Part shown: positions 6,745 to 55,840 of the stretch, one piece after another
How positions within the stretch are numbered: the stretch's first letter is position 1
Layout: each line of letters opens with the position of its first letter
NCBI GenBank assembly: GCA_000091205.1
Contig: AP006502.2
Length of the DNA stretch: 64,000 bases
From: Cyanidioschyzon merolae
Taxonomy: Eukaryota
Reading direction: 5' to 3' (one strand)
Position numbers and translations under genes: made by a program
Notes under the pieces: model-generated
Told to the model about the DNA's origin: nothing
The model's input: the letters and a program-made list of their open reading frames with translations, nothing else
Databases searched by the model: none

Positions 6745-8694
6745 TCAGGCCGAGAGTACCGCACTCGACGCATTCGGCAACGCTTCCCTCCACTGCAGCG
6801 AATCCTTCAACGCCAGCGTAAGCATCAGTGCCTGGGCATAGTTCAGTCGCGGATCGCAAGCTGAATGGTACGCGCGAGCGAGGTCATGAACTGCGGTTCG
6901 GGTGGCGCCACCAAGGCACTCGGTCACCGCTTCGCCGCTCATTTCCAGGTGTATGCCACCAGCAGGCACACCTTCGGCAGCGGTAATTTCAAAGAATAAC
7001 CGCATCTCGTCGAGAACCTGCTCACAGTCTCGAGTCTTGAATGAATTGCCGTTCTTGTCCCGAACACTCTGGGTATTCGCATGCATCGGATCGCACATCC
7101 AGACGACTGCGAGGCCGCTGCGCTTCACCGCTGCCATGAGCGGTGGAAGCTTTCGCTGGAGAGCATCCACACCCATGCGTGTGATCAGTGTCAGACGTCC
7201 GGGAGTGTTCGCGGGATTCAGGATCTCGGCTAGCGCAAATACTTGCTCCAGTGTAGCGTTTCCAGACAGTTTCACGCCAATCGGATTGGAAACACCTCGA
7301 AGAAACTCAACATGAGCGCCATCAATCTGGCGAGTGCGCTCACCTATCCAGAGAAAATGAGCACTTGTCGCATAATACTGCGGCGCTGATAATAAATCGA
7401 TAGGCGATCCCGCGTCTCGGTTCAGGTGCTCCAGGGTATGTGCATTGCCCGAAGGAGACCAGTCGGCAAGGCGCACTAGGCCTTCCTCGTACGGAAGTAA
7501 AAGTGCTTCGTGCGACGTGAACACATTCTCGATCACGTTTGTGTCGATACTTGTTACATGGCGGCCAGTGCTGCTCATCACTATGATTTCTTCATCGATT
7601 CCTTGCACCAGGTTTTGAATCGCCTTCACCAGGTTCGAGTCCACGACGCTGTCCCAGGCCAGTTTCTCGCTCAAAATCCTCAGCGATTCCATCGGAGACG
7701 CATGCAGGTGCTCAAGAACACGCAGATGTTCCAGAGACGCGGACGCATGCCGGTACGCCTGCAAGAGTCGCTGTGGGTCCGGAGTTCGCGCTCTGCCATT
7801 CGGTGCTGCGGAGTGCACGATGTCGCCCCGGAACGACGGCAGCCCGTCCGCATCCACAGGAGCAGAGCGAGGCTTCGCAAACTGACCTGCTATGCGTCCG
7901 ATTCGAACGATACGCCGCTTGCTCCCAGTACTCGATAAGATAGCCGCCTGGGCAGCCAGCAAATGGTAGAGGCTTATGTTGTACTCGAGGGTGCGGCTCG
8001 AGAACGTTTCGGCACAGTCCCCACCCTGAATCACGAACGCCTCACCGTGACACGCCGCGGCCAAGTGCTCGTGCAGTGATCTGATCGATTTGGGTGTCAC
8101 GAGACCGGGGAGTGTGCGCAAACCCGCTTCGACGAGCGCCAGCTGGTCTTTATCCGGGTACACGGGTAGCTGGTGCGCAGGTCGCTGGCGCCAGGAGCTC
8201 GGTGACCACGGCTCCGACCCTACCTGCCGACCCCCGATCGAGACGCTGTTTCGCAGTCCGAACGCTCCGCAGCCATCGCCGAGCCGTACGCAGACCTCCG
8301 CGCCCCGTTCAACGTAGTAGACGCGGCTGCTCAGCGCGACGCTTCCACACCGACGCACCGCTTGCCAAGCAGCGCGCCCGCTCACTCTTCGCCGAAACGG
8401 ATTCGACACCACAAACCCTTCCATTGAACGTATAGTGCACGTAATAGCGGACGAAGGTCGCTTCGATGCAACTGAGCCCGCAACGGCTTCCGAAGCTGCC
8501 GCCCCCGGAAGCATTCTGCGCTTACAGCCAACCTCGCTGCTGCTGTTGCCGGACGCAAAAACGGCGGCAACCGGCATTCCGGCCGCCGCCAATGTCGACG
8601 CCTTCCTGCAGCGCATCCGGACACGTGTCTGGTTCCCGGCGGCGTTTTGATCATCGTTCACCTCAAATGTGTTCCACATTCCGGTGCAGGTCAT
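6745..8694 (-). CDS. 3-deoxy-D-arabino-heptulosonate-7-phosphate synthase, class II (plant/microbial type), with an N-terminal extension of ~170 aa.
   Basis: Class II DAHPS motifs: GGDCAETF, IGRIAGQFAKPRS, WIGERTRQxDGAHVEF, CDPMHANT, HLEMSGEAVTECLGG. The true start may be an internal Met downstream of the transit-like region. Confidence 0.9.
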   Translation of the reverse strand: MTCTGMWNTFEVNDDQNAAGNQTRVRMRCRKASTLAAAGMPVAAVFASGNSSSEVGCKRRMLPGAAASEAVAGSVASKRPSSAITCTIRSMEGFVVSNPFRRRVSGRAAWQAVRRCGSVALSSRVYYVERGAEVCVRLGDGCGAFGLRNSVSIGGRQVGSEPWSPSSWRQRPAHQLPVYPDKDQLALVEAGLRTLPGLVTPKSIRSLHEHLAAACHGEAFVIQGGDCAETFSSRTLEYNISLYHLLAAQAAILSSTGSKRRIVRIGRIAGQFAKPRSAPVDADGLPSFRGDIVHSAAPNGRARTPDPQRLLQAYRHASASLEHLRVLEHLHASPMESLRILSEKLAWDSVVDSNLVKAIQNLVQGIDEEIIVMSSTGRHVTSIDTNVIENVFTSHEALLLPYEEGLVRLADWSPSGNAHTLEHLNRDAGSPIDLLSAPQYYATSAHFLWIGERTRQIDGAHVEFLRGVSNPIGVKLSGNATLEQVFALAEILNPANTPGRLTLITRMGVDALQRKLPPLMAAVKRSGLAVVWMCDPMHANTQSVRDKNGNSFKTRDCEQVLDEMRLFFEITAAEGVPAGGIHLEMSGEAVTECLGGATRTAVHDLARAYHSACDPRLNYAQALMLTLALKDSLQWREALPNASSAVLSA

Positions 8695-9763
8695 CAGGTG
8701 CTTTTTCGCGGTTTTGTAGCGGTTGCGGTCGAAGTGCGTTCATTTTCAAACATAAGATACCCTAGGGAAAGGTGCGGACATAAAATTCGGGGAACTTGGA
8801 GGGCGGCATTGCTGGGTTCTACAAAAAACCCGAAAGAAGTCCATGTTCTCGCTGACCCGCGCGCGAAGCAGAGCGAGTGACGGACAGGAAGAAGAAGAAG
8901 AAGGAGATAGAGGAAACACTGTTTGCCTGACAAGTCGATGACGAGACTGCATTAGCACAGAGGGTATGCGTTCGAGGAATCCTTGCAATATTGAGTTCCC
9001 CTAGAGGCAGTGCATGTAAGGAGTTCGTAAACCTGAACGCTAACGCTGCTTCAAGTATAAGACGACGTGCTGTGCTGAGGACGAAACTCGAGGACCTGAC
9101 GCGAACCAGCATCGTCGGGCAGCCTCTCAGGCTCGAAGTATGCCTCGATAAACCGAAATCGATAGCAGGCGGCCAGTCAAAACAGGCTGGAAGGCGTCTG
9201 CGAGGGCGTAGATATATATAAACGCTCCATCGTCGTAGGGTGTTTACGAATGACTGAACGCTCAGATACTGCAGCAGCGCGTGCAGCGCATTCGCGGCAG
9301 CGCACACGCATGCGCAACGGCGCGACGATGCAGGCGCGCACATCGATCCAGTGCGTTGTTAGCGGACTGCCATACGCGGGCATCGAACACCAGCGTGTTG
9401 CCGGCGTGCACGATTCCTGTAGGCAACTTGCGGTAGCGACTGCCGCCTCGAGAGTGCAGCGGAGGAGATCACACACATAAATGTATTCCATTGGATTGGG
9501 GGTTCTCGGCGAGAAGGTAACCTACCGTGCAATCCATTCGAGATTAGAGGCTCTTCGTGCAACAGTCTCCGCAACCGGCAAATGCGCTACGGACATCGAG
9601 GGGCAGGGCGCTTTTCGCCAAGGTCTGTGCACCCGTAATGATAGTATCCAGCACCAAACAATCCGCGTGTGGAAGACGTCGTCCCCCAGGCCGGATGTCT
9701 CTCCGAAAGCAGAACCCTTATTCCCATCATTTCCTCTAGTCGTGGAGCACTGGTTTTGCTGGA

Positions 9764-15022: not shown

Positions 15023-16612
15023 GACTCGCTCGAGAGCGGCACGTTAGCCTCAGCCCTCAGGTCTCCATGTCCTTTTGTAGACGCTTGCAAGCGAGAGCCT
15101 ATCAGTCATCTCAGAATAAAATGGAACGGCCTCTCGAACTCGGGCGTACACTCCAATGTTTGGATGTTGTCCCGTGATTTTCAACACCAGCTTTTGCGGG
15201 ATTTTCTTTTCTGTGACCGCTTCCGTTTCGTATCTCTTACTTCCGGCTTTCAAGATGCGGGTCACTCCTGTCCCTCGAGCTCCACTGGAAACAGTCGGGG
15301 GATATTGATGGCAGCTTTTTCGTCCCGATTTGGCCGCCTCCAGCACTTGTCGACGCAGTTGACGTTCAGGTGAAAGTTGCGATCCTCGATTCGCTTGCGA
15401 TTCCCATCTTTATTGGAAGTAGTTATGGTGCGCCCTTCACAAAGCAAATGATTGGCCGTTGTTCGGTGTTCCCCTGGATCCACTGGACCTCATCGACCGA
15501 GCGCCATCGTGCGGCTCGTGAAATCCTGCCTCAGCGCTCGGCACCGGCCCATGACGGGTACAGTACGCTGCACTCGATGTCATCGCCTGTTTCCGCGCCC
15601 GATACCGTACCCTTCCATCACGTAGTTCCGCTGAGCGATTCTCTGAAACAGTACGTTGTCTGCCGTACAAGCAAACGCGCTTTGTTCCATTTGATAGAGG
15701 ATTTATGGAATACGATGTTGTCTATGATGAAATAAAATGCGGGAAGGACGATCCACGCTGAGGAACATCTCGAACAATGGCGATCCGGTCTACGCTTCCT
15801 TCATGAAAAGTGATGTCGTATGCTCCATTGGTATCGATTGCTGCGATGACGCAAGTGCTAGTCCGAGACACCTTTCCATGCAAATAGGAGAAACACGAAC
15901 ATATTCGAGAATATCTAGTAAGATGTATCATGGTGGTGCTGCCGAAAACAATGTCTTCGATGCTCGCACCGGGAAGACCGTTTGTCTTTCGAATGGGAGA
16001 GATTATTTGGCGCGACAAGTTCACCGAGATCCCCGCACAAGCGTATAACCAAGTCGTCCAGGGACGGTTTCAAGTGTCTTCCGTCGTCAATTGAGCGACA
16101 CGGCTAGCTGCGCCCACGAGTTACCTTGAAAAACCAAGATGGAAAACTTGAAGAACGGATGATTCTAGGCATGCATTAGATGATGATATCGATATTTTAC
16201 GAAACCTTGTGCGAGGCCGTCATGAACCAGTTGGATTCGGGTCACGTCACGAATTCCAGCGGCAGGGCGTCGAACGTGCCACATCCCGAAACACAACCGT
16301 GGATCCCGCATCGACTTTTGAACCCGATAAACCTCTTCGCATTACTAGGAATGCTGAGGTCTTACATTTAGAAGAACTCGGGAACAATCGCAAGCTAGAA
16401 CAGAGCGAGTCGTTCAGTGCTATTTTCTATGAAGGTGACGCGGGTGTCGAGCGCCCGGACGCGCAGCCCCTGGTGCGACCATACCAACTGTTCCGCTCCC
16501 GCTGCACAGATACGCGTTTCCGCTTCTAAAATAGGTCTAGGAAGCTGCCGCGGGACGGGAACGCTTTTCGTCGTTCCCAAACCCGGCTGGGTCCGCCGGC
16601 TCGGTACACAGC

Positions 16613-25843: not shown

Positions 25844-26817
25844 GCTTCAAAGTATATATGTCAGTCTATGAATTGAACTATATTACCTGTGTTAAAGTGA
25901 ATTTTAGCACCGTATGTTACGAGCAGTCGCGAAAGCTCCACACACGCACACACACAACCGTTGTATACCGAGCGGAGCAAAGAATTCGAGCCATTCGTGT
26001 GATGCGACGCAGCATGCGCTCGCCCGCAGCCGCTCGCCCGCAGCCGCTCCGTCGTGCGCATGCCGCGCCGCATCACACGATCCCAGATGTGACCGATCGC
26101 GGCGAACGACGTGACATCGATTTCCTTCCGATTCGATAGGGCGTGTGTCCGCTGACCACGGATCCAGGACTGCGGGATGGATGCAGGTACTCGGGGAAGC
26201 GTGCATCATGTTGCACTCTAATTTCGATTACCGTTAAGTTCTCTTGGGCGTGCGGGCCGTTTCGTACGTTCTATCTTGAACCGAGTGCCTGCCGTGCTGT
26301 ACCCATCATAGCACCGAGACCGCTGGCACGGATGCCGTATTGAGAAAGCACGCGGTATTGCGCGAATACTGAGGGTGTCGGCTCGATGCCATGATTCGTT
26401 CAACGCGGCACCGCAGTGCATAATCGTGCCGGGAGCCAGCAAGCTGTGCATGCGGACATCCTGTCTGCCGACGCGCGGAGCGATATGCTACGAGTCCGCT
26501 GCGACCAGGGCGACGCCCAGACGCAGCGTAACCGTCCCTAGTGCAAGAATAAAGTGCGATGCCGACGATTTGCTCAGGTATTGCCACAGCACGCGCCACA
26601 GAACAGAGCGTGAAACACGAGTCCAACAGACTTGGACGCTCCGCGGGACCTAATACCGAGGAGGTAAACTCTCGAGAATATGGAAAACCTTTTCTTCCTT
26701 CCACGCTACCGAGAAAGCGAAACGAAATTATGATACGGTTGCTAGTCAGTGATAAGTTTCTGTTCTTTCCGCACCATACTGCATCACAGGGATGATGCGT
26801 GCGCAGCTACGAGCCAT

Positions 26818-26970
26818 CGATGCAGGGGCAGGGCCTCACAACAGACTCGGTGCACTGCGGAACTTGCGGCCTGATCCATATCTTCAAGGGAACCGATGCA
26901 GGGGCAGGGCCTCACAACAGACTCGGTGCACTGCGGAACTTGCGGCGTGATCCATATCTTCAAGGGAACT
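26818..26970. repeat. Tandem duplication of two 76-bp copies in the CbbX-DDX3 divergent intergenic region.
   Basis: The units are 26819-26894 and 26895-26970. They are nearly identical, differing at one C/G and at the 3' end. Confidence 0.9.
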
Positions 26971-26990
26971 ATGGATAGTCGCTCGACAAA

Positions 26991-27095
26991 CTTGGAAGTA
27001 CGGCGTGGAATGATGGGCGCTTTCCCGGAGGCCGATACCCATCCAGCCCGCAATCTGGGATCCATGGTCCATGGGAACGTTTTGTCATCGAAAAG
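26991..27095 (+). repeat. Conserved non-coding element, copy 1. Its ~60-bp core is ~85% identical to 33495-33553.
   Basis: Both copies share the core cccgcaatctgggatccatGgtcCatggGaaCgttttgTcatcg. This copy lies ~245 bp upstream of the DDX3/Ded1 ATG and contains the ATG of a 66-codon upstream ORF (27071..27271). Confidence 0.7.
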
Positions 27096-27338: not shown

Positions 27339-29222
27339 ATGGCTCGATCTTACGTACCGCCCCATATGCGGCGGCAACTGGAACAGCAGCTCCGAGTAGG
27401 TGCGGCAGCAACCGAGCGCCCACAGCCGTTTCAGGGAAACGGTGCTCCCGAGGGGCGTGCTGCCTCATCTGGGGGCTTCTTTCGAAGTGGTTCTGGGGCG
27501 TCAAGAGGAGGCAGCTCTTTTGGAGGTGGCGTGATGGGTGCTCGGGAACGCGGCACCGGGAGCGCTGCTCCGGGTGGCGGTCGGCGTTGGGGTGCGGCTC
27601 CGACAGGCCCTGGACACCAATCAGGCGCGTCATCGCGCTTGCAGCGCCTTGGATTGTGGGAGGAAACAAACCCCTACTACAGCAGTGGGCTGGGGAAGCC
27701 TCAGGAACAGGATCACGCTGCCGCTGATGCGAACGGCGAGGTTCTAGAGCTTTTCAACGGCCAGAATACTGGCATCAACTTTGACAAGTACGACGATATT
27801 CCAGTAGAAGTTTCCGGTGAGAACGTCGTACCGGAGATCATGTCCTTTGAGACCAGCGGTATGGATAAGATTCTCCTGCGGAATGTCGCACTGTCAGGGT
27901 ACCGCAAGCCCACACCTGTGCAGCGGCACGCGATCCCGACGGTGATGGCTGGTCGCGACCTCATGTCATGTGCCCAGACCGGAAGCGGGAAGACTGCAGC
28001 GTTTGTGCTGCCTGTTCTACATCAGATGCTGTTGATGGGCGGCCCCGCGCCACCGCCATCCTCGTCGGGCGTAGGCGGGATTTCCTCGCGCTCCCGTTGC
28101 TCGTATCCAACGTATCTGATTCTGGCTCCGACGCGGGAGCTTGCATCGCAAATCTTCTCTGAGTGCCGGAAGTTCTGTTACGGCACCAGTATTCGCGCCG
28201 CCGTGATCTACGGTGGCTCCGAAAATACCCGTGAGCAACTGCGCGCCGTGGAGAATCAAGTTGATATTGTGGTGGCAACACCCGGGCGCCTTTTGGATTT
28301 TATTGACCGGGGCCGCATCCATTTGGCAAACGTCCGGTTCCTGACCCTTGACGAGGCGGACCGTATGCTCGATATGGGTTTCGAGCCTCAGATCCGGCAG
28401 ATTGTGGAGAACTGCGACATGCCGGCGGCTGGCCAACGCCAAACGCTCATGTTCAGCGCAACCTTCCCACGGGAAATCCAACGGCTTGCCTCCGACTTTC
28501 TGCACGACTATATTTTCCTTGCCGTGGGGCGAGTCGGTTCCACCACGGATTTCATTGTGCAACGTATCGAGTTTTGCGAGGACCATTTGAAACGAGAGAT
28601 GCTGCTAGATCTCTTGAACAGCATACCCGGCTTGACCTTGGTTTTTGTAGATACAAAGCGAGCCGCCGATGCTCTCGAGGACTTTTTACTGCGACACGGG
28701 TATGCGGCGTCGTCGATTCACGGAGACCGGAGCCAACGCGAGCGCGAAGACTCGCTCGCAGCTTTCCGTTCAGGACAGACGCCTATTCTCGTTGCAACGG
28801 ATGTGGCTGCTCGTGGTTTGGATATCCCGAATGTTGCGCACGTCGTCAACTACGAGTTGCCAGCAGCCATTGATGACTACGTGCATCGGATTGGCCGAAC
28901 TGGTCGAGCTGGCAACCAGGGCATCGCGACCTCTTTTGCGAACGAAAAGAATCGGGGCATTGTACGTGACCTCATTGAACTCCTACAGGAGGCCGGCCAA
29001 GAGGTTCCCTCCTGGCTCTATACGATGTGTCAGGCACCAGTAGCCCGGAGCGGTAGCGGTCGAGCGGGGCGTGGCGGTCGTTTCGGCGGACGCGATATGC
29101 GTCGCGAAACGGGTGCTCCACGTCGACCTGCATTCGCAGGGAATGCATCATCGACCTCGACGATGCGCGACGAGCCCTGGGGAGGTGGCAACTGGCGTGC
29201 CTCCGGCGGAAGCGCCTGGTAA
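27339..29222 (+). CDS. DED1: DEAD-box ATP-dependent RNA helicase of the DDX3/Ded1 family.
   Basis: Helicase motifs are present: [56 protein letters not shown]-rich N-terminus and RGG tail follow the Ded1 pattern. The ORF stops at TAA. Confidence 0.9.
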
Positions 29223-29603
29223 GCACATGGACCGCTCCGTTGTACCTCGCGTCCGTTACTATGTACTCTAAACATCTCAATATACGAGCAGCAGGTTGTT
29301 GGTTTCGTTTTCAGTTGTGGCGTCGAGTGGATACCATTCCGAGCGCCTCGATGCTGGCGTCGCGTCTGAGCCCAGGCCTGCGCTTGCCCCGAATCAAAGT
29401 GCTTCAGGCAGGTCGTTCTATTGGTGCCAGCGTGACCTGGTCGTCCAAATTGTGAAGCAGACCAGTTGATGTGTCCTGTTCTGTGCACACCAGACAGCAG
29501 GCTCTGTAGATGTCTGGACGTGGCGTACGGCTCGGCGGTTTGTTTGTGCTTACCTGGCGTGCGGCGAGCGACCCAGCCGCGCCCTGAAAGCGCCTGCGCG
29601 TGG

Positions 29604-29621
29604 TTATTGTTATTGTTATTG
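29604..29621. repeat. (TTATTG)3 minisatellite.
   Basis: Read directly from the sequence. Confidence 0.8.
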
Positions 29622-30899
29622 GGTACTACAAGCAGCAATTGCGCCTTTGGGAGGATGCACCATCGACACATCGATTTTCTGTAATCAAAAACATGTGCCT
29701 GTCGGCAAGCGACATCCTCTGGTACGCCATGAGCCTTCCAAGGGTGCAGCGCCTGCACCACGGCGCACAGCATCGCTGAAGGTACTCGAAGCAGCTGGAT
29801 AGCTGGGGCCTGGGAATGGGTGTGCGTGGGGAAAGATCACGGCGGACGATGCGCTGGGGGATACCCAGGGGAAAAAATAGATTGGATCTGTACGCATGCC
29901 AGGCTAAAATGGAACGCGTCCCCCAGGCGAACTCAGGTGTCTGCTCTAAGGAAAGGGTCTCTTTCCATGATCATGATCAGCACCAGCGTTTGCAGGCTTT
30001 TCCGCTACTGTCCGTTTTTCCTCTCTCGTTCTCTCTTATATCCGGCATTGCACAGGTCGGACGCTCGTATCCCTTGCGAGGTAATCCCAACAGTCGACGG
30101 ACGTGGACAGTGGCTTTAGAGACTGGATTTCGGAGTTTCCGACGGTTGTCGACGCATTTCACGTACAAACCGAAGTTGCGATCTACGCTTTGCGAACCAT
30201 TTCGATTTCCTTCGTATGCAACCTCTGTGCATGCTGCGCAGCGGTAACGCTTGACGCTGATCAGGTATACCCATAGGTCCATCATTTCTCTCGTGGCGCG
30301 GAGGCCGCGTTGCGGCGCATGAAGGCTTGCACCCTCGCTCAATACACACGTTCTTGTTGGGTACTGAGAGCTTCCCCATATGCTTCCAAAGATTTCCGCG
30401 CCTACTTTCGTTCTTTAACGATCACGCGCTTCTTCGGCACGGTGCCTGCGGCGCGCTATCCGCTGCGCTCGCAAGTGCAGGCCCTTCTATTCGATGCTAT
30501 ATTCGTGGAGCGCCAAATTACTCACAGTGACATAAGTAACGGAAGAAGAACCCAACTTAGAAAGCTTTCCGATCCGGTTACTGTCCCTTCTTGGAGAACG
30601 GTGACAATCTCGCCACTGAGAGCGATCGCCGTTTTGACTCAAGTCCGAGTTGAAGTCCCTCTGCCATGCACACAGAAGAGACGGGAGCCTTTGCAAGTAT
30701 ATCCCGTCGGGGGGACCATGCTGCTGTGGACTTTTGTTTCGTTGATGTCCACAAAAAGAGAAGGACTGGCAGTTCGAACGTTGTTCTTTATTTGGTGCGA
30801 CGAGTCCATTGAAATTTGGGCAAGAGCTGACGAACAAGTCATCAAGGGACGAGGTCAAGTATTTTATTCCGTGAATCCGGCGGTTCGAAATGCTGCACC

Positions 30900-33400
30900 C
30901 ACGAGTTGCCATGAACCAAAATGATCGAGAACTTGAAGCGTATGTGATTTGACGAAGCTACACATAGGGATTGGACACGAGCGGAGGCTTTTAAATGTGA
31001 ATCGCATGATAAGATCGGCTATTAAATGAACCCTTTTTCGATAAAGTTGCGAATCATCTTGATTCTAGTGACGCTACGAAATCCGAGTAGACAGCATCGG
31101 AGGAGCCGCTTCGAAAGCGCGACCGAGAATCCGAGAAATTCCAATGAATCCATTAGCACCCTGTGTTCACTATCCTCTTTTTATACACATGTGATCAGAG
31201 AAACAAAAACGCTTTCTTCGAACGTCCAGGATAAATGAATACCTACTCACAGACGCTTCCCAGTCTTTTCCGACCGGCAGCCTGCTATCGGCTTCAGCTT
31301 CTCCTTGTACACTTTGAGCCTGAAAGGTTGCCCCATGAAGTTGGATCACCTCAGGTCCGCAGATCTCGTCTTCTGCACCGCATATCGTCTGGCGTGGATG
31401 GCGGCGTTGAAGTCTCGGTTCACGACCTCCATGCGTTTATTGCAGCTGGTTGGACTCACTATCGCGAGGCTCACTCGAACTTTTGCATTCTGTACCACTA
31501 CAGTCCCGCCATTGGCCTGTCGAGCAAACACCTTTTTTTTTGTCAGTGTCCCTCTTCTTCGTCACTTGCTCTTCTTCGTTCGATGGCCGGCGAGCATATT
31601 GTTTTCGTCCATTTCGGGCGCCCGGCGATGACGGGCCTGCAGGATCCTCGACTGCCATGTGCATAACTGTCCCTTGGATGTTTTGTTTCTTTAAAATGAA
31701 CGCACTTGTTTATGCCCCTTTGTGGTGACCTTCACGGACGGAGAAGGGCCTGCGGAGGAACGACGCATGATATCCCGATGTGTCGCCGTGTGCTGAACGC
31801 TCTAGCGATTCACCTAGAGGATCGATCAATACGTTTCATAATAGACAACACGCCTTCCATGGGCTTCAACCACGGAGCGTACGGAGGAACGAAAAGCAGC
31901 TCTACCCCGATAGAGTGCGCAAAAGCTCGGACGCAATGGGAACGCTGAAATGCCACGTTTTCCAACAGAGGGACGTCACCAGACCCACAGGTGAAAGGTC
32001 TTCGATCATTCAACAAAGTGGTTCATGCTGGCCTGTGAGCCTGCTCTACGAGCGAAACCGAAGGCTCCACTGGAATCCAGTGCACAGCTAGAACACATGA
32101 TGATGTCCTGGTTCTCTTCGAGTTCGATCATATATACAACGGGCCCCATCACCTCGAGTACCCGTGTACGCTCAGTCGATTTCATCCGATGGACGTGTCA
32201 TCTGCGGAGGGAAAACAAAGCAACATAACTCCGTTTCATACCGACCGCTGAGTTCCAGGACCGCTATTGTTGTGATTTCGATGGTAAATGGCCGTGCGTG
32301 AACCAGGACTTTTTCTGCGCTTGTATTCCAACGTTTTCAGGACTATACGAACAAACAGTGAAGAAACAGAGACGGTCATGGTGGCTACTAGCGTCGCTCT
32401 CTGCTTGCTGTGCGATGATCAATCGGTCGTTTACGATCATTGGCAGCAAACAGTCTTTGAGAATGCACATATCTGGCACGGAGCGCTTGTTGTTGTTTCT
32501 TTCAGTATTCCTCAACTATCTGGGTACATTGGTATGACCAACCTGAAGGAGTAATGCAGTCCTCCATGTGCACTTCCGTAAAGCGCATTTCCTATGGGCA
32601 ACTCGGCTCCGATCTACACTGTACATTGGAGTGTGATATCGATCGTCTGCTACGCAGCGTGGCAGGTGGCGGCACGAAACTGTTTTGAACGACTGTAACG
32701 GGAGGTGAATGGTGGAACCTGCAGTTATGGTGCAGAATGATGAATGACCTCACGTACGCGGATAACGTTGGCGCCCAATCGAAGATGTTTCAGTTCGTGA
32801 CTGCGAACCATCGATCAACGTACAGAAACGATCCGATTGCTTCATCCTATGGATGATGGAAAAAGAAGAGAAAATTACTATTGTATTGGCGAAAGTGTGC
32901 CGAAAGAACAGAAACAAACCACTAACTAGGAACTCGATAACAGTAGGTTTCCCTCTGTACGATAAACCTTAGAAAAGGGGGACGCTTTCCGTACGATCGA
33001 AAGTTTCCCTTGTAGACGGAAGAGCCCACAAGCCGGACGAGTCTCCGGGGCTCGTACTTCATGCCCCTCCCCCAGTGGCGGATGTTGTGACGAGACGTTA
33101 GCGACTCGTTCACATTGCGAATGCACTCTGGAACTCTGGGCAGTTGGACGGTGTCTGTGCGTCGCCCTGGTCCGGGTGGACTCCTGGAATATCGCTTCGC
33201 GCTGCTGCAGGCAATAGGTCTATATGCACAGCTTGCGGGGTTTCAGAATAATTATGCACTCTGACCCCGCTTCAGGTGAAGCACTCCTCGACCCGATGCC
33301 CTCAGTGGTATGACGAAGCCGTTCTGACTCCGTGATGCATCTGCTCCAGCGTTTTAGGCGCTACTGCCGGTGCATTGATGCAAGAACTCGGCACACGTTA
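30900..33400. mobile_element. AT-rich block with no long ORFs that harbours the mariner-like remnant. It is probably a decayed DNA-transposon insertion, and its boundaries are uncertain.
   Basis: GC content drops against the flanking genes. It contains a (T)10 run and the transposase fragments. A weak inverted match (gctcttc..cgt.c near 31568 and 33023) may mark degenerate TIRs. Confidence 0.35.
31810..32515 (-). pseudogene. Degenerate mariner-like (Tc1/mariner superfamily) transposase remnant.
   Basis: Minus-strand fragments in three frames align with the Mos1 transposase. CFFTVCSYSPENVGIQAQKKSWFTHGHLPS matches IVTGDEKWIHYDNPKRKKSWVKPGQPS, with the first DDE Asp lost. LVEQAHRPA matches LLHDNARPH. 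LLFVPPYAPWLKPME matches LPHPPYSPDLAPSD. Stops and frameshifts separate the fragments. Confidence 0.55.
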
Positions 33401-33449
33401 GAACGTACAAAACAACCAGCACATCCGAAAGAAAGTACAAGCAATGGAA

Positions 33450-33555
33450 CTTGGAGGTAGGGTGTAGCATCATGATGGAAGCTTTTTCGATTGCGATTAT
33501 CCATCCCGCAATCTGGGATCCATAGTCAATGGAATGTTTTGGCATCGGAACAAAA
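33450..33555 (+). repeat. Conserved non-coding element, copy 2, overlapping the annotated 5' end of the KMO ORF.
   Basis: It aligns with 26991-27095 over ~105 bp. The core is ccatcccgcaatctgggatccatagtcaatggaatgttttggcatcgg. Confidence 0.7.
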
Positions 33556-35805
33556 TCCATTTCTGCGCCAGAACAATTTTTCACTTGCACGCGAGACCAC
33601 CCAGAGCCGGAACTTGGGGCAAAGAGCGCTATGGCGTCTTCTGAAAGCTTCTCGGGCAAGGAATATACAATTGCTTCGAATGACCACACAACTGACCCGG
33701 TTCGGCGTGTGCTCCACTTTCATAGCGAAGCGAGTAAGGGCCTCAAGAACCGGGAAGAGGGCTCGTCAACCAAGCCGTCTCCGGCAAAGACGTTGCAGTT
33801 GTCTGAGAGCTGCGAACAAGACGCCCTTGCTTGCGCCTCAGAGGTGCGTATCCGAACGGTTCGCTCGTCACCAGAGTCTGGGTCACCAGGTGTCGCCGCT
33901 TCGACGGTGCTCGCACGTGACCCCGCTGTCGTGCTGGGTGCCGGCCCAGCGGGCTGCCTCATCGCACTCGAACTCAGTCGTCTTGGTATTCCCGTAGAAG
34001 TTTTTGAATATCGCTCCGCGCATTATTTTAGACCCTATATAGAGTACGCTGGAGGTGGCGGTGATCGGGCTCCTTACCAGCGATATCGCGGACGATCGAT
34101 CAATCTGGCACTTTCGGCGCGAGGTTTGCGTGCACTGGAAACCGTCGGACTCGCACAGCGCATCCAGCAAATAGGTGTGCCTATGCGGGGGCGCATGATC
34201 CACGATACAGCAGGACGCGTACACTTTCAGGCCTACGGTGGTCGTCCCGAGGAGTACTTGCTCTCGGTATCGCGCACCACGCTGAATCAGATGCTCGTGG
34301 AGACCTGTCTGCTCGATGAGCGCGGCCTGATTACGATGCATTTTGGAAAGAAATGTACCGACATTGATCTCGACCAGTGCGTCTTGACATTCGAGGATGG
34401 ATGGATGTCACCGAGGCACCACGGTTGGCCAGAATCAAATACTGAGGACACGGTTGATTCGCCACCGAGTAGCCGCAGCCTCGAGCGAGAACGAAGAGCG
34501 CGAAAGCGCGCAGCACCCGCGCGCGGCTTCCTGGGCACCAAAGAGAGAACGCCGCGTACGCCGCAGCACGACGCTACGCACAGAGAGCCTGGTGCCGAGG
34601 CCGTCCCCGGGTCGCTGATGTCGTCAACCGGACGCTCGACGTCAGCCGGAGCGGTCTCGACGCGTCATGTCACTGCAAGTTTTATCATAGGTGCGGATGG
34701 TGCACATTCGCGGGTGCGCCAAGCCATGCAACGACTTGTGCCTTTCAATTACGAGCAGGAGTACATCCCAACGGCGTACAAGGAGCTCTCGATTCCGTCA
34801 CGCATACAGCGAGATGACACCGGGGGCTCTTCGGGCGGTTACTTGTTGGCACCGCACGCGTTGCATATCTGGCCTCGACATCGCTTTATGTTGATTGCAC
34901 TGCCAAACCGAGACGGCTCCTTCACTGCTACGTTATTTATGAACAGAGATGCGGATCCAGGAGCGCCAGACGTGCCTTCGTTTGCAACCGTTCGAACGCC
35001 TTCGCAAATCCAGCAATTTTTCGAGTCCTATTTTCCGGATATTTACGCGCTTGTGCCATCGCTGGTCGCAGATTACCAGAGTAACCCGGTTGCTCCGCTC
35101 TTTACGATTCGCTGTGCACCATTTCATTACCGCGGCAGGGCGGTTCTCGTCGGAGATGCAGCACACGTGATGGTGCCGTTCTATGGTCAAGGTTGCAATG
35201 CCGCCATGGAGGATTGCCGGATTCTGGCAAATTTCTTCCGTGAAGAGATACGCCTCGCTGCGCTTCGAGCACCAAACAGACGCGTGCGGGGATGCGTGCG
35301 GCTCCCTGCCTCGGACTTGACGGTTGACTTCGAGGATGGCATTGCAGAGGACGACTTGACAGATGCGAAAGGCCTGCAGCGTGCTCTAGCCGATGATGGA
35401 TATCTGGGCGGTGTCGTAGATTCGGAATCCGAGGGCGCGGCACTTTTGGACCTGGAGCGGGTGTTCTCTGCCTATAGCGCTGAACGGAAACCGAATGCTG
35501 ACGCGATCACCAACTTGGCGCTCGAAAATTACTGGGAAATGGCCAGTAAGACCTCGTCGCGTCTTTTCCGCTGGAAACGTGAGATCCAAAACCAACTTCA
35601 CGCGCTCATGCCTTGTTATTTCATGAGCCTTTATCACATGATCTCATTCAGCAACATTCCCTATGCAGAAAGCGTTCGCAGAGCTCAGAAGCAGGATCGT
35701 GTCATGAACGCGCTCTTCCGCTCATTAGGCTTGGGCTGTGTCAGCTTTGCTGGATTCATGCTGTGGCGCGCTTGTCACTTGCTACGCAAAGCACAGAGAA
35801 ATTGA
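33529..35805 (+). CDS. KMO: Kynurenine 3-monooxygenase (FAD-dependent) with low-complexity insertions and a C-terminal TM segment.
   Basis: The FAD GxGxxG motif is VVLGAGPAGCLIALEL. Other motifs are FIIGADGAHSRVR and the diagnostic KMO motif VLVGDAAHVMVPFYGQGCNAAMEDC. A C-terminal hydrophobic anchor is present. The more likely start is the ATG at 33631 (MASSESF). Confidence 0.8.
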   Translation: MECFGIGTKSISAPEQFFTCTRDHPEPELGAKSAMASSESFSGKEYTIASNDHTTDPVRRVLHFHSEASKGLKNREEGSSTKPSPAKTLQLSESCEQDALACASEVRIRTVRSSPESGSPGVAASTVLARDPAVVLGAGPAGCLIALELSRLGIPVEVFEYRSAHYFRPYIEYAGGGGDRAPYQRYRGRSINLALSARGLRALETVGLAQRIQQIGVPMRGRMIHDTAGRVHFQAYGGRPEEYLLSVSRTTLNQMLVETCLLDERGLITMHFGKKCTDIDLDQCVLTFEDGWMSPRHHGWPESNTEDTVDSPPSSRSLERERRARKRAAPARGFLGTKERTPRTPQHDATHREPGAEAVPGSLMSSTGRSTSAGAVSTRHVTASFIIGADGAHSRVRQAMQRLVPFNYEQEYIPTAYKELSIPSRIQRDDTGGSSGGYLLAPHALHIWPRHRFMLIALPNRDGSFTATLFMNRDADPGAPDVPSFATVRTPSQIQQFFESYFPDIYALVPSLVADYQSNPVAPLFTIRCAPFHYRGRAVLVGDAAHVMVPFYGQGCNAAMEDCRILANFFREEIRLAALRAPNRRVRGCVRLPASDLTVDFEDGIAEDDLTDAKGLQRALADDGYLGGVVDSESEGAALLDLERVFSAYSAERKPNADAITNLALENYWEMASKTSSRLFRWKREIQNQLHALMPCYFMSLYHMISFSNIPYAESVRRAQKQDRVMNALFRSLGLGCVSFAGFMLWRACHLLRKAQRN

Positions 35806-42550: not shown

Positions 42551-43328
42551 TGTCCCTGTCATGCGAATGTTATTTCCGAGGTATTCTAGGTGTACAGCAT
42601 CGACATTGTCTGTGTACCAAGTGGAGCACACGGATTCGTGTGTAGGTCCAGGATTCGCGGTGGTCTTTTTCTCGGAATACGCCTTCGACGCTTTGCCGTC
42701 GGCGTTCGCGACGTCATCGGAATCGAGATGATTCGCGACGCTCTCCGAGAACACTTCAAGAAAGTAACCCGGATCATTATGCAGGGCATGCGTACGGGCC
42801 CCGGCGATTCTCCGTTGCGTACATGGAGCATGCCCAAACCGCGCATGCTCCAAGATACCGATCTCTGTTTCAGGACAGCTTGTGGGCGCAGCAGTGCTTG
42901 CCGCAGGACTGACGCGGAATAAATCGGGGTATCGTCCCGTGACGCCTTTTTCGCAAGCACATACCAAGCGTTCACTGAAAATCACTTGTGAACTGTTCGT
43001 AGACTCCGTTCGAAGCACACATCCTCGATTCCGTGTGGGCATCCACGACGCGCCATTTGACACCAGCGTGATGCCTCGTGCCTTGAACAGTACTCACCCT
43101 GACAACGGGCGAAATCGGGACTGGAAAGCCACCATCACCATCCTTTGACTGCCGAGCACGAAGCCGGCGAGAAAAGAAAAACCGGCGTGCTACGAGCTGG
43201 AGATAGTCGGGCGGAAACGGCATCGGTGTCGGAAGAGCGCGCAACGGCTTGTGTTGATGCGCATTGGCAGAGACTCGAACGCAAGCGCATACGCCTATGT
43301 TGCTACGCCTGTTCCATTTTATACTGAC
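42551..43328 (+). repeat. 778-bp dispersed repeat, copy A. It is ~99% identical to 53384..54161 and in direct orientation.
   Basis: Base-by-base comparison shows only about seven mismatches. The termini are 5'-TGTC...GAC(A/G)-3'. It contains the 5' ~170 codons of a minus-strand ORF (42347..43063) and about 265 bp upstream of it. Confidence 0.9.
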
Positions 43329-46591: not shown

Positions 46592-47841
46592 TGGCGGTAC
46601 ACCCTTTCACGTTTCCGTTATCGCTCTTAGCAGGGACAGCAACTCCACGCAGAAGCTGCGAAGCAAGCAAGTACCCGCTGTAGCTCAAGGCGGACGCCAG
46701 CGCTCGACGCGTGCCTCGGGATCTTCGCACGCGCGCCTGCGCTGCCGTTGGGCAGCCGCAGGTCGCTTATGATCGATGGTTTTTTTCGATGACAAAACGT
46801 TTCCATGGACTGCGGAAAACAGATTGCGGGTAGGTAATGGCAATCGAAGAAGCGTCCATCATGGTGCTACGCCCTATCTAAAAGTTCTATTACTTATAAT
46901 TCCCTTCGGATGAAATGGTCGTTTCGTGCGTTCTCTCTTTCGCCGAGTGCCTACCGCGAGCACCCGCCGTCGCGCGTATACCGCTGGTGCGCATGCCCCA
47001 CCGAGACAGAACCGCCTTTCTATGCTACTGAGGGCGTCCGCTCGAAGGATGATTCACCTGACACAGAATCAGGGCTCATTATCATTCTGGGAGCCTGCAA
47101 GCTGCGAGGCAGATATGCCGCTTGGGGCAGAGCGAAGCGATACACTAGGAGTCTACCGCGATCAGGACGACGCCCAGACACAGCATCCCGCTCCTAGTCT
47201 CCGAATATACTGCGCGTTGACGAGTTGCTCAGGTCTCGCTAAAGCACCAGCTACTGCAGAGTCGCATGAAGCACGAGTCGGGGAGACTCGTCCGGCTCGC
47301 GGGACCACCTGCCAATAAGATAAACTTTCGATAATATGGAAACCATTTCCCCTTTTAACGGTTATCGTTGAGGGCTGCGCAATTTTCATCATGTTGCTCG
47401 TTAGTGGTTCGTCTATGTTCTTTTGTCTGCAGCGCAGTCCATACGCGCACACCCGTATCTTGTAGGCATCAGACAAGACGCGTATCAGGCGGTTGAAAGG
47501 AAACGCGATCCTGACCATGAGCTTGTAGCTCTATGGTAAAAGACGTATTAGGGTTGAAGACGTAGCAAAGTATAGTGTTTTATCCCAATTGTGCTCCAAC
47601 ACTCAAGATAGTGTATTCATGTGATTTTTCACGGTTTATAGCAGAAGCGTTCGAAGTACGTTCTTTTTCTAAAAATAAAAATAAAGTTGTGGAAATAGAA
47701 GTGGAAGATCCTGGAGAGCTGGTATCCCCGGTTGCCGGAAACAGACGAATAACATTGCGGAGCAAAGAGGAATCGGGGAAGACGAAGAAGCAAAAAGGGG
47801 AGGCCCGACGCCGAAAGCTGCAAGAAAGACGATAATGCGAC

Positions 47842-49551
47842 GTGATGGTGGTGAAAGCCTGTCTTCTTAAACATATCAAGGATCCTTACAGGGAAAAGTT
47901 GCGAGACGCTATCAGAAACCGTATCGACTCGTACTCCAAGAGCATCGTCAAGGCGTCGTCAGGTCTGATGCATTTGGCGAGGGGGATGTATCGCGACGTG
48001 AAGCACATGGAAACAGTCGAGATTCCGGACGAGTTTTTCGATAAGACCTTTAGTCGTCAGCTGATGTTTGGCACAGGGGAAGCTCCGAGGGAAAATGAGC
48101 GAATGCATGCCCTCCACGAGAAACATCCCTTTTACAGGTTCGAGGGTAATCGAAACAAGGGGGACTGGGGTATTTACGACAATGGGGCGATGAAGTACCT
48201 CACGAATCTGAAAAACCATTTGACAGTGAACCTCGAACGTTTCATGATACGCGCCGTGTTTGCGCTCCACCCGGGCATCTCTCGCAATGGAAAATGGGCG
48301 ATTATCAGTGGCATCATGAAAGATCGCAAGCATGAAGACGAGATCGAATTTGTCGGAGAAAAGGCGTCAAACGAGAGCACGAGTGAGGATTCCGTCATCC
48401 GCGCGGTTATACAAGAGCATCGTGCAGTCTCGGGGCTGACGAACCCAGCAGAAAATGTATTAGATTTGAAAAAAGATAAGGAAAGATACTATCGCCTCGT
48501 CCTGCGCTATTTCGTGTTTTTGGACCGTGAACTCGAATGCAAGGCAGAGATGAAGCTGAATGGGACAAAAAATGAAGATTCGGGGAGACGGAAGGCTGCG
48601 CTTCTGGGTAAGCGCTTCAACGTCGTTCCGTTATGCAACATCAAGTCACATTTTGACACCATCGACTCCAGAATCGCTCACGGCAGCATAAAGGAGATCA
48701 GTCCGGAGTTCGATGTAAGGAGGACAGAGTTCACTGGTGGAAACCGGGAGACGTACTGGAAGAACATCTTCAATTTCAAACGGCTCAAAGTCAGCAAACA
48801 AAAGGTATTCACTGGGATGATCGAAAACAATGGGGTAGCCATGTGTGTCCACTATCGGCGGTCGAAGGTGGATCGCCCAATCGTGCCTTTCGCTTCGCCC
48901 TCTGCGAAGCATGAAGAAAGCAAAGAGGCGGATCCTGTGATGCAGGAGGTGCAGGATAACGACTCTGTCGTTGGCGCGGACCCGGGGAACACGAACATCG
49001 TAACCATCGCAGTACCCAAGCACGGGGTATATGGTAACGACGGCAATTTACGTCAGAAAGACATGCGTCTTTTGAGAATCTCGAGAGCGAGATGCTACCG
49101 AGAATCCGGTATAATGAATGTGAGGAAGAAAATTTCTGCATGGGATGCAGGAATGAAGGATCACCTGGAAGCCACGAGCGCGGTGACGAGCCGAGAAGCA
49201 GACTTTAAAGCTTTTCGGAAATTCGTGGAAGTTCGTGTTGCGCATTGGGATGCCCTGTGGGAGGAGTATACCGAGCCCAGATGGGCTCGTTTGCGTATGA
49301 ATCTATACTGTGGAAAGCAGCGGGCGTTCGCGAATTTTTTCAATGAGTTGAGCGCCTTGAAGGAGGATGAAAATCAGAGGCTAGTAGTAGCATACGGAGC
49401 AGGGCGATGGACGACCCAAAAAGGGTGTACACCAGCTCCAACGACGAGGGTGTACAAGGAGTGCGCACGGCGTTTCGTTACGAACCCGGTAGATGAGTTT
49501 CGAACATCGTATACACACCATGAACTGTGGTGTACACTTCAGAGGGTCTAG
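47842..49551 (+). CDS. Fanzor-like protein (eukaryotic TnpB/OMEGA-family RuvC nuclease homologue). This is the main ORF body, and it is interrupted at the C-terminus.
   Basis: A ~380-aa N-terminal region precedes the RuvC-I-like motif [16 protein letters not shown], whose Asp codon is at 48979-48981. Near the end, [15 protein letters not shown] resembles the TnpB TS-x-C zinc-finger lead-in. The ORF ends at an in-frame TAG (49549-49551). An in-frame TAA at 47833 separates it from an upstream 86-codon ORF with a K/R-rich NLS-like tail. Confidence 0.7.
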
Positions 49552-49763
49552 ATGGAAAAGTGTCCGGGGAGCCCCGAGGATATAGCAAAGTACGGACCGC
49601 TGACAGACGAGCAAATGGAAAGGATAACGAAAGTGCGCAGGCTACTTGCATTAGTGAGTAAACTCCTAACGGCACGAAACAGGTGGAGTTTGTGAACCGA
49701 GACTTGAACGCCGCTATCAATGTAAGGAGATGTGCGGTACTGGAGAATAGACCTCCAGACTAA
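49552..49763 (+). other. Displaced C-terminal segment of the Fanzor/TnpB-like gene carrying the RuvC-III motif. It reads as either a pseudogene tail or an exon after short introns.
   Basis: In the frame of positions divisible by 3, codons 49683..49763 read VEFVNRDLNAAINVRRCAVLENRPPD*, with RDLNAAINV being the canonical TnpB/Fanzor RuvC-III motif. It is separated from the main ORF by the TAG. A 29-nt GTGAGT..CTAAC..AG element (49654-49682) would splice frame 1 into this frame in phase. Confidence 0.6.
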
Positions 49764-50020
49764 ACAAGAGGGAACTTTGATGGACAATTCTGAAAGTTTT
49801 ACTATATGAGAAAAAGTTGGAAGCAGTTGTGGGTGGCCGGTCGAACAAGTCTGGCAGGCGTCTGCACATCAGTTGGAGACGTTTCGTTTAGGGTGTGTCG
49901 TTCGCCACTACTGTACACTGCCGGCAGCATCGTTCGACTTTAGATAGGCGTTTGGTGTTGGCTGCGTCTTAGACCTATAACGAGGCAGACCGATACGAAG
50001 CTCGGTGAAAGGAGCCGTTT

Positions 50021-53383: not shown

Positions 53384-54161
53384 TGTCCCTGTCATGCGAA
53401 TGTTATTTCCGAGGTATTCTAGGTGTACAGCATCGAAATTGTCTGTGTACCAAGTGGAGCACACGGATTCATGTGTAGGTCCAGGATTCGCGGTGGTCTT
53501 TTTCTCGGAATACGCCTTCGACGCTTTGCCGTCGGCGTTCGCGACGTCATCGGAATCGAGATGATTCGCGACGCTCTCCGAGAACACTTCAAGAAAGTAA
53601 CCCGTATCATTATGCAGGGCATGCGTACGGGCCCCGGCGATTCTCCGTTGCGTACATGGAGCATGCCCAAACCGCGCATGCTCCAAGATACCGATCTCTG
53701 TTTCAGGACAGCTTGTGGGCGCAGCAGTGCTTGCCGCAGGACTGACGCGGAATAAATCGGGGTATCGTCCCGTGACGCCTTTTTCGCAAGCACATACCAA
53801 GCGTTCACTGAAAATCACTTGTGAACTGTTCGTAGACTCCGTTCGAAGCACACATCCTCGATTCCGTGTGGGCATCCACGACGCGCCATTTGACACCAGC
53901 GTGATGCCTCGTGCCTTGAACAGTACTCACCCTGACAACGGGCGAAATCGGGACTGGAAAGCCACCATCACCATCTTTTGACTGCCGAGCACGAAGCCGG
54001 CGAGAAAAGAAAAACCGGCGTGCTACGAGCTGGAGATAGTCGGGCGGAAACGGCATCGGTGTCGGAAGAGCGCGCAACGGCTTGTGTTGATGCGCATTGG
54101 CAGAGACTCGAACGCTAGCGCATACGCCTATGTTGCTACGCCTGTTCCATTTTATACTGAC
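53384..54161 (+). repeat. 778-bp dispersed repeat, copy B, the partner of 42551..43328.
   Basis: Same as copy A. Its ORF copy is 53339..53896 on the minus strand, which diverges once outside the repeat. Confidence 0.9.
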
Positions 54162-55294: not shown

Positions 55295-55840
55295 AGCGGG
55301 CCGAGCATCGCAGGCAGCGCAGCAGGCACCGGGGCCGCGAGATCACCACGGAGGAGGCGCGGAGGCGCGGAGGCACTGCCGCTGTACCTGCCGCTCGCGT
55401 CTCCGCGGCCCAGCAGCGGATCGCGAGGCGCGGCTGCCTGCTGCGCAGCCTGCGCTGCCAGGATGCTACACCACATCGCTGCGTCCACGCGTACCTGTCC
55501 GGGTGCGCGTATCATCATGCTTAGGACCAATGAATGGACCTCATTTTCTCCACAGATGCTCCAGCGTCCCATACAATCCAGATGCGTCTTCTCCCCCCGG
55601 AGGGGGGGGGACGGTTGCAGACCCCTGATGCATCCATGAACACACCCGATATCGAGCCTACTGCGGCTCGTGTCGATGAGGATGGCGCAGAGGTCGGCCT
55701 CAGAGGCGGCAGCTTACGTCCGGGAGTGGCCTCCAGAGCTCCTGGCCTGCAGCGGCATCCGCTCGGTGCGCTCCTCGCCAGCCTGTCGGCTATGTACCGA
55801 TCGGCGGCGCGCCCGGGGCGCCTCGAGCGCGATCCGCCGC

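Follow-up and report, generated by a model that had tools for sequence, protein, structure and literature searches.

The spacer between a DDX3-type helicase gene and a kynurenine 3-monooxygenase (KMO) gene in a 64,000-nucleotide stretch of DNA from the red alga Cyanidioschyzon merolae (contig AP006502.2 of assembly GCA_000091205.1), referred to here as the window, contains a decayed repeat unit of ~1.5 kb on the minus strand. The unit comprises a pseudogene for a transposase of the IS630/Tc1/mariner superfamily and, downstream of it, a truncated gene for Fanzor1, a TnpB-like RNA-guided nuclease. Its parts are arranged as follows.

31195–32697, minus strand: whole repeat unit (~1.5 kb) of leader, transposase pseudogene, internally deleted Fanzor1 and 3' terminal region
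32627–32697, minus strand: 5' leader with terminal TA-CAGTC, conserved among 18 copies
31713–32626, minus strand: transposase pseudogene, IS630/Tc1/mariner superfamily, DD35E type, ~303 codons, full length; stop codon 31710–31712
32200–32202, minus strand: first catalytic Asp codon, in SADDTSIG, aligned to VDETSFG of intact relatives
31960–31962, minus strand: second catalytic position, Glu for Asp, in LLENVAF (LLDNVAFH in relatives)
31855–31857, minus strand: third catalytic residue, Glu, within PPYAPWLKPMEG, 35 residues past the second position
31247–31664, minus strand: Fanzor1 (CMe-1 type) gene remnant with one frameshift; stop codon 31247–31249
31391–31426, minus strand: surviving RuvC-III motif of the Fanzor remnant, VVNRDFNAAIHA (NRDFNAAIHA), the final RD motif
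31195–31246, minus strand: 3' terminal non-coding region (..GAAAGCGTTTTTGTTTCTCTGA), with the 3' end GAAACGTTTTCGTTTCACTGA conserved among copies

Extent and lesions of the transposase pseudogene

Transposase-derived sequence is present on the minus strand of 31810–32515 well beyond chance. A minus-strand open reading frame (ORF) of 68 amino acids (aa) at 31810–32016 matches the Pfam DDE_3 domain (E = 5.4e-8; 33.3 bits, cutoff 28.6) and positions 231–274 of the 299 in the NCBIfam IS630 transposase model (E = 2.4e-8), and when 1.84 billion representative proteins were searched exhaustively with HMMER for homologues of this ORF, 197 of them reached E ≤ 1e-3 (best value 1.6e-12). The full-length matches are proteins of 299–302 aa with a putative helix-turn-helix (HTH) N-terminus and a DDE_3 domain. 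In tblastn searches of the window, full-length relatives align significantly from the first residue (32626, MYSVDRSRVAHRK..) through the C-terminus, with E values reaching 3e-22, and the N-terminal MYSVDRSRV.. region is colinear with theirs; the HTH Pfam matches are all sub-threshold (HTH_Tnp_Tc3_2 at E = 3.8e-4 for the family consensus and 8.9e-7 for P0007; HTH_23 at E = 5.8e-5).

A frameshift-aware alignment of the family consensus to the DNA covers 32626→31713 at 65.5% aa identity, so that a whole gene is represented, rather than the three isolated fragments of a preliminary description of the locus. The frameshifts and stops reported there are real and number six each: in-frame stops lie at 32518, 32184, 32151, 32130, 32008 and 31812, and frameshifts at 32398, 32310, 32210, 32085, 31984 and 31791. 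Joined across these lesions, the sequence still aligns significantly, the stitched pseudo-protein matching DDE_3 at E = 1.4e-10 and NCBIfam IS630 at E = 1.4e-8; its 34.6 bits fall far below the IS630 cutoff of 100 because the copy is decayed. By comparison, a word-indexed homologue search and a phmmer search of PDB with the 68-aa ORF returned nothing, neither Pfam nor NCBIfam gave a match to the remaining short ORFs, among them the "KKSW" ORF on which the first reading had partly relied, and three-frame domain scans of 30900–33500 gave the single DDE_3 match and nothing further.

The catalytic triad, intact in the family, is degenerate in the window copy. Among the three motifs originally proposed, the PPYSPDL region (PPYAPWLKPMEG, 31887–31852) is the only one to have been assigned correctly. 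The KKSW/GQPS peptide (32320–32291), which had been placed past the first Asp, is an out-of-frame reading located 5' of the codon for that residue (32202–32200); in the correct frames this region aligns to the ..RKKARFxGxP.. segment of the relatives. The sequence taken for DNARPH is LNDRRPF (32013–31993), a linker preceding the second catalytic position, the true motif being LLENVAF (31968–31948).

The Fanzor1 remnant, its copies and its intact relatives

The truncated Fanzor1 gene that follows the transposase, like a separate TE-N2_CMe-like repeat beside the unit, goes beyond what had been noticed before. Its closest counterpart is CMe-1A, a C. merolae repeat of 3169 bp and ~150 copies that encodes a 734-aa Fanzor1, lacks terminal inverted repeats (TIRs) and is of unknown class (Bao & Jurka 2013, PMC3627910). 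The Fanzor1 gene of the window unit starts 45 bp past the transposase stop, with its ATG at 31664. The N-terminus (MHMAVEDPAGPSSPG..EEEQVTKK) and a C-terminal part (AKVRVSLAIVS..VVNRDFNAAIHA..GQPFRLKVYKEKLKPIAGCRSEKTGKRL) are kept, and both the N-terminal peptide and the RuvC-III peptide agree with the CMe-1 protein as published. At the nucleotide level, positions 869–968 of the CMe-1A consensus correspond to 31707→31602 (74.5%) and positions 2844–3083 to 31486→31250 (72%); the ~1.8 kb missing in between (CMe-1A ~969–2843) constitute an internal deletion that removes RuvC-I, RuvC-II and the zinc finger. The complete RuvC and zinc-finger pattern D-X(125,275)-[TS][TS]-X-X-[C4]-X(5,50)-RD is absent, the last RD motif alone remaining, and the adjacent Fanzor1 sequence is a remnant, not a functional member. 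The RuvC-III motif also occurs in a full CMe-1A copy elsewhere in the window (VNRDLNAAINV near 49690) and in intact relatives (FVNRDVNAALNI, FVNRDKNAAINI).

The 1.5-kb unit recurs at ~69–70% nucleotide identity at independent loci of related algae (L005 9467–10874; L012 5549–6770 and 10983–12359; L017 1–1295), and the identical deletion junction is found in at least five loci with differing flanks, these among them. A metagenome scan added ~20 further algal copies, which fall into four classes: those deleted as in the window; those with another deletion, joining the transposase to CMe-1A ~2737; those in which the transposase is fused straight to the 3' end; and those in which it is cut short at codon ~270, where a TE-N2 arm takes over. 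The 3' end is retained in every class but the last. Such retention is commonly seen where DNA transposons have lost internal sequence.

In the last class, the codon-~270 truncation (..RSTGR) is joined to the 5' end of a TE-N2 arm at three different loci, L005 15237→13787, L007 5354–6835 and L076 4970–6464, and L024, L038, L040 and L096 are also listed with this join. The breakpoint coincides with the position (consensus +811) at which the transposase tail picks up again, as a relic, in CMe-1A. The recurrence would be explained by a hotspot of recombination or insertion common to these loci, or by the spread of a third composite family.

The plus strand of the window has another Fanzor stump at 8694–9204, in which the same internal deletion leaves CMe-1A 832–887 and 2850–3084. 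It lacks a transposase and directly adjoins the start of a minus-strand ORF at 6745–8694.

The window copy of the unit is 79% identical to a consensus of 20 copies, whose GC content is 0.497. Its substitutions comprise 75 GC-to-AT and 85 AT-to-GC changes, with no GC-to-AT bias; the lower GC of the spacer is thus the repeat family's own composition, and decay of the repeat-induced point mutation type, or GC-to-AT decay in general, is ruled out as its cause by the same figures. The AT-richness first remarked on is real and modest (0.48–0.51 against 0.566 for the whole window), and it does not come from decay.

In other metagenomes (GC 0.38–0.60), intact relatives carry a transposase gene of ~300 aa followed, 10–240 bp on, by a same-strand ORF of ~630–650 aa. 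This ORF is 29–40% identical to the CMe-1-type ORF of the window (lowest E value, 1e-132) and contains VDEFRTS.. and FVNRDxNAAxNI, and a profile built from such ORFs matches the solved Parasitella parasitica Fanzor1 at E = 1.9e-10. Pairing of the transposase with a Fanzor homologue is seen in 11 of the 12 related loci that have downstream sequence. The recurrence of the 1.5-kb unit, together with the paired genes of the intact relatives, indicates that transposase plus Fanzor is a real unit, and the ~300-aa DD35E clade appears nearly always to be paired with Fanzor1 in ~3-kb elements across this range of metagenome GC. Compact ~3-kb elements of this kind were noted in brine, freshwater and other metagenomes (L018, L020, L023, L026, L035, L036, L037, L044, L053, L072 and L082); their hosts could be algae or giant viruses.

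Origin of the unit and alternative readings

Very probably, a two-gene DNA transposon gave rise by deletion to a derivative of ~1.5 kb, now dead, of which the relic is the transposase half. The ancestor would have been an element of ~3 kb encoding a ~300-aa DDE transposase of the IS630/Tc1/mariner superfamily (HTH N-terminus, D-77-D-35-E) and, immediately downstream on the same strand, a Fanzor1 of ~630–730 aa. By analogy with described systems, the transposase would have moved the element by cut-and-paste, and the Fanzor, guided by RNA from the element's 3' (right) end, would have cleaved targets in a way that favours retention or spread of the element. Guide-RNA nuclease activity of TnpB and Fanzor is a current model for element retention and forms part of the basis for this scheme. 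The scheme also leans on described Fanzor1-bearing IS630/Tc1/mariner elements (PMC3627910; bioRxiv 10.1101/2024.09.03.611062). In the lineage of the window copy, an internal deletion would then have removed ~1.8 kb of the Fanzor gene, and the resulting transposase plus Fanzor-stump derivative, with both ends kept, would have spread to several loci before decaying neutrally. What is shown is the identity, extent and lesions of the relic, the order of its genes, its distribution in many copies and the existence of intact relatives with both genes; the order of events and the mechanism of the ancestor we infer. The distribution of the deletion derivatives shows that transposase-bearing, Fanzor-less units were still mobilised, by their own transposase or in trans. 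On its sequence, the window copy is enzymatically inert today: its transposase has six stops, six frameshifts and Glu in place of Asp at the second catalytic site, and RuvC-I, RuvC-II and the zinc finger are all missing from its Fanzor stump.

Among 18 copies, similarity begins at TA-(C/T)AGTCTTTCAAC.. (TA-(C/T)AGTC); the window has TTA-CAGTCGTTCAAAAC (TTA-CAGTCGTTC), with CAGTC from 32695. Similarity ends at ..GAAACGTTTTCGTTTCACTGA (..CACTGA) in the copies and at ..GTTTCTCTGA (..CTCTGA) in the window, where the last base is 31195. A TA precedes the 5' end in the window (32697–32696) and in ~7 of the 18 copies. Both ends carry a Tc1-like CAGT/ACTG tetranucleotide and have nothing longer in common. 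The TIRs that had been anticipated near 31.55 and 33.05 kb are not there, short inverted repeats at chance level being the only ones found; the ends lie at ~32697 and 31195. By comparison, the intact relative L018 has TA-CACTCTACC.. and ..GGTTGAGTG-TA TIRs, with a score reached by 2 of 500 shuffles.

Several observations count against this origin. No extended TIR was detected at the ends of the window unit, where 154 of 500 shuffles reach the observed score, and the ends of the consensus give no significant TIR either (287/500). At the 3' end the base after ..CACTGA is variable and the flank reads A+N instead of a clear TA, so that the end hallmarks of a Tc1-type element are not demonstrated. 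The 20-copy consensus itself requires ~3 frame corrections; possibly the master copy was no longer functional when it amplified and was moved in trans, or possibly the consensus has flaws. The metagenome scan found no copy that joins the transposase to a full-length Fanzor among ~20 Cyanidioschyzon-type loci, and the presence of the two-gene ancestor in the algal lineage is therefore deduced from the junction and from relatives that have no assigned host. Finally, the Pfam TnpB/Cas12f domain is matched weakly, and by one intact relative (E = 0.011).

The relation of the unit to the repeat beside it bears on two further readings. The features involved are listed below.

32698–32902, no strand: unassigned spacer separating the transposase–Fanzor unit from the TE-N2-like repeat, 205 bp, GC 0.45
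32903–33547, minus strand: TE-N2_CMe-like repeat, 645 bp, matching CMe-1A 1–636 at 79.7% identity (E = 6e-159)
33529–35805, plus strand: ORF for KMO, matching PDB KMO at E = 1e-73
27339–29222, plus strand: ORF for a DDX3-type DEAD-box helicase (Pfam DEAD and Helicase_C), matching human DDX3X (PDB) at E = 1e-164
46787–49950, plus strand: complete CMe-1A-type Fanzor1 element, covering consensus positions 1–3169 at 84% identity

The TE-N2-like arm, the transposase and the Fanzor stump might form one contiguous element, a full-length progenitor of CMe-1A. The arm, a ~200-bp spacer and the leader do stand in the order and orientation seen in CMe-1A, whose layout comprises an arm (1–636), a 152-bp spacer, a 30-bp relic of the transposase leader (788–817; 23 of 30 positions identical), a 16-bp relic of the transposase tail (853–868) and the Fanzor gene. 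The spacer of the window, however, resembles neither that of CMe-1A nor those of other copies (z = 0.4), an arm directly upstream in the same orientation accompanies none of ~20 other transposase copies, and TE-N2_CMe is an independent repeat of 635 bp and ~70 copies, equal to the 5' 635 bp of CMe-1A (PMC3627910). This makes a single contiguous element unlikely, and the repeat at 32903–33547 is most likely an independent insertion into the same tolerant intergenic spacer. The two relics between the TE-N2 arm and the Fanzor start are short matches and only suggestive of CMe-1A being a reciprocal, transposase-deleted derivative.

The block might also have been exapted, with the TE-N2-like repeat and perhaps the relic serving as promoter or 5' untranslated region of KMO, or with the 68-aa ORF as a retained peptide; this we consider quite improbable. 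Each of the four TE-N2-type 5' ends in the window lies 0–310 bp ahead of the start codon of a host gene that is transcribed divergently (33547 beside KMO at 33529; 26153 beside an AAA ATPase gene at 25843; 46787 beside an ORF starting at 46591; 27090 beside DDX3 at 27339), C. merolae 3.2-kb repeats are reportedly transcribed (PMC1955436), and homologous short ORFs are annotated as "transposon" proteins. Yet divergence among the copies (~70% pairwise) has the look of a neutral rate, their stops and frameshifts differ in place, and a compact genome may tolerate insertions solely in promoter-side spacers. A promoter-side insertion preference, an orientation constraint and promoter exaptation are each possible explanations of the placement of TE-N2 5' ends.

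A TE-N2 5' end at 11509–11529 of L005 likewise lies beside a gene, for UQ_con, at 11694. In the window, the paralogues of the repeat at 32903–33547 lie at 46787–47423 and 26153–26768. In the interval 33529–33650, the ATG that opens the KMO ORF (33529) is covered by the 5' end of the repeat at 32903–33547; the true start of KMO is probably a downstream Met (..MASSESF..), so that the 758-aa KMO product annotated on metagenome contigs is likely over-extended at its N-terminus.

The preliminary description had called the transposase mariner-like, with a Mos1-type DDE(D) triad. A decayed gene of Tc1/mariner lineage on the minus strand is borne out; the mariner label holds at superfamily level and no further. 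Descent from a true, Mos1-like DD34D mariner has in its favour the superfamily fold common to both, the PPY(S/A)P..NP(I/M)E motif, which resembles its Mos1 counterpart, and sub-threshold profile matches to SETMAR/Hsmar1 (E = 0.024) and to Mos1 (E = 0.13, not significant). Against this, where mariner has Asp at spacing 34, the window copy and all eight intact relatives measured have Glu at spacing 35 as their last catalytic residue; the relatives are uniformly D-77(81)-D-35-E. The mariner Pfam family is matched in no scan at E ≤ 1–10 (ORF, three-frame, stitched and consensus), and phmmer of the consensus against all PDB chains, Mos1 among them, gave nothing at E ≤ 1. The closest solved relative of the family profile is Sleeping Beauty, which is of Tc1 type (E = 4e-4, a weak match). 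Furthermore, the consensus matches DDE_3 at E = 5e-21, and the intact relatives and consensus exceed the NCBI curated IS630 cutoff over nearly their full length (110–130 bits against 100, with 119–130 for the consensus and one intact relative). The spacing, the lack of a mariner match and the IS630 score identify the gene, on sequence grounds, as an IS630/Tc1/mariner-superfamily DD35E transposase and not mariner sensu stricto; a strict mariner is very improbable and can be taken as already refuted at family level.

Chance similarity, bacterial IS630 contamination or a recent horizontal insertion is already refuted and has a negligible probability: the best-scoring model was built for bacterial IS630 and the nearest BLASTX matches of the C. 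merolae relics are bacterial transposases (Nozaki et al., PMC1955436), but the E-values exclude chance, and the unit sits between eukaryotic genes on contigs of several metagenomes at 99% identity, is multi-copy in algal contigs, strongly decayed and fused to a eukaryote-type Fanzor1.

Relation to known elements and the remainder of the window

Cyanidioschyzon is the textbook example of an "almost transposon-free" eukaryote, in which CMe-1A/TE-N2, with its Fanzor1 gene, is the one abundant repeat. Eight "class II elements", few, degenerate and nearest to bacterial transposases, have been reported from C. merolae (Nozaki et al. 2007, PMC1955436). These "transposon" relics of strain 10D (for example BAM81807.1 / XP_005537843.1) belong to the same transposase family as the window copy: BAM81807.1 (89 aa) falls in a cluster of the matches and is 64% identical over the C-terminal part of the DDE domain, and its locus (L005/L006) holds the same transposase plus Fanzor-stump unit. 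The locus of these relics differs from that of the window copy, and PMC1955436 makes no mention of a link to Fanzor. CMe-1A shares its Fanzor sequence with the window stump and its TE-N2 5' arm with the neighbouring repeat (79.7%); it lacks the transposase apart from the short leader and tail relics, whereas the window unit retains the transposase and has lost most of the Fanzor.

Our comparison extends to systems outside the alga. Fanzor1 genes within Mariner/Tc1/IS630 transposons, as well as Fanzor-only and gene-less derivatives, have been known since 2013 (PMC3627910; bioRxiv 10.1101/2024.09.03.611062). PUl-1 and PGv-1 of Bao & Jurka and the Fanzor families A–C of a Chlamydomonas giant endogenous virus have a transposase followed by Fanzor1 in ~3–3.6 kb, as proposed for the ancestor. 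The transposase of PUl-1 is a detectable homologue (26% identity, E = 3e-15) with D-75-D-44-E spacing and 24-bp TIRs flanked by TA duplications, whereas the present clade is D-77-D-35-E and its algal copies have no surviving TIRs. Bacterial IS630 (NCBIfam NF033545; Pfam DDE_3) supplies the best-scoring curated model for the intact relatives and the consensus; in contrast to bacterial IS630, the window element resides in a eukaryotic nuclear genome and is paired with Fanzor1. Sleeping Beauty/Tc1 (DD34E) shares the superfamily fold, its SB100X profile match spanning the region from the second D to the E, and Mos1 mariner (DD34D) shares that fold with the non-significant match given above. The Traveler family of Tc1/mariner (PMC7093834) has the same DD35E spacing, and spacing alone was compared.

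Copies like that of the window physically tie the CMe-1A/TE-N2 repeat to an IS630/Tc1-type transposase. The chances seem evenly divided on a broader proposition, that the junction in the relic (transposase stop, 45 bp, Fanzor start) makes the CMe-1A/TE-N2 repeats descendants of a Fanzor1-carrying IS630/Tc1-type DD35E transposon, the "class II" relics the remains of its autonomous partner, and the transposase clade a widespread, undescribed transposase–Fanzor1 lineage. If true, ~5% of the famously transposon-poor Cyanidioschyzon genome (CMe-1A/TE-N2) gains a class. In the literature searched, Fanzor in Cyanidioschyzon is discussed solely by Bao & Jurka 2013 (PMC3627910), and since CMe-1A is left unclassified there, the physical link between transposase and Fanzor may be an unreported, though unsurprising, classification. 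The relic itself is an ordinary genomic fossil, which would show the origin of the alga's abundant Fanzor repeats; the intact relatives, with short definable ends, could help in studying cooperation between Fanzor and cut-and-paste transposition and could serve as compact sources of Fanzors and guides.

The spacer had been described as a gene-poor, lower-GC interval between DDX3 and KMO, and this is upheld by the two protein matches and by the composition. The window has a GC content of 56.6% (0.566) and long intron-less ORFs densely packed on both strands; the three 1-kb bins at 30–33 kb have values of 0.51, 0.51 and 0.48. The transposon fragment accounts for the gene-free, lower-GC spacer and should be masked, not annotated as a gene. 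A self-comparison of the window shows the "gene-free block" to be a mosaic of dispersed repeats. In the left part of the DDX3–KMO spacer, no Pfam domain was found in any of the six frames of 29223–31200. Two colinear patches of weak similarity (65–68%) link 29977–30938 to 15181–16153, both in lower-GC spacers; the pair has no Pfam domain and no match to CMe-1A, and may represent another old unclassified repeat. Among all the loci compared, an orthologous DDX3–KMO locus was found on the same-species contigs L001–L004 and on no others. Metagenome contigs carry the DDX3–KMO block at ~99% identity, and the ELO protein of the window occurs only on the Joint Genome Institute (JGI) metagenome contigs that bear this block. 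Rfam and tRNA scans of the whole window gave no match, and blastn against a phage collection likewise found none.

The complete CMe-1A-type copy at 46787–49950 is broken as well. An ORF at 47842–49551 (569 aa) is separated from an N-terminal piece of 86 aa (47575–47835), and a frameshift lies between this ORF and RuvC-III near 49690; the copy is therefore also a pseudogene. The GC dip and the strong GC and AT skew at 47–50 kb are due to this element.

The spacer upstream of DDX3 contains a TE-N2-type repeat at 26153–26768 (plus strand, 73% to the consensus) and an inverted stretch of 100 bp from a TE-N2 5' end at 26989–27090 (minus strand), with a 76-bp tandem duplication, 98.7% identical, between the two at 26818–26969. 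A 778-bp direct duplication at 42551–43328 and 53384–54161, 99.4% identical and with its copies 10.8 kb apart, is far younger than any transposon relic in the window. The self-comparison also revealed imperfect palindromes at 25995–26080 (80% self-complementary, 88 bp) and 55305–55458 (72%, 158 bp).

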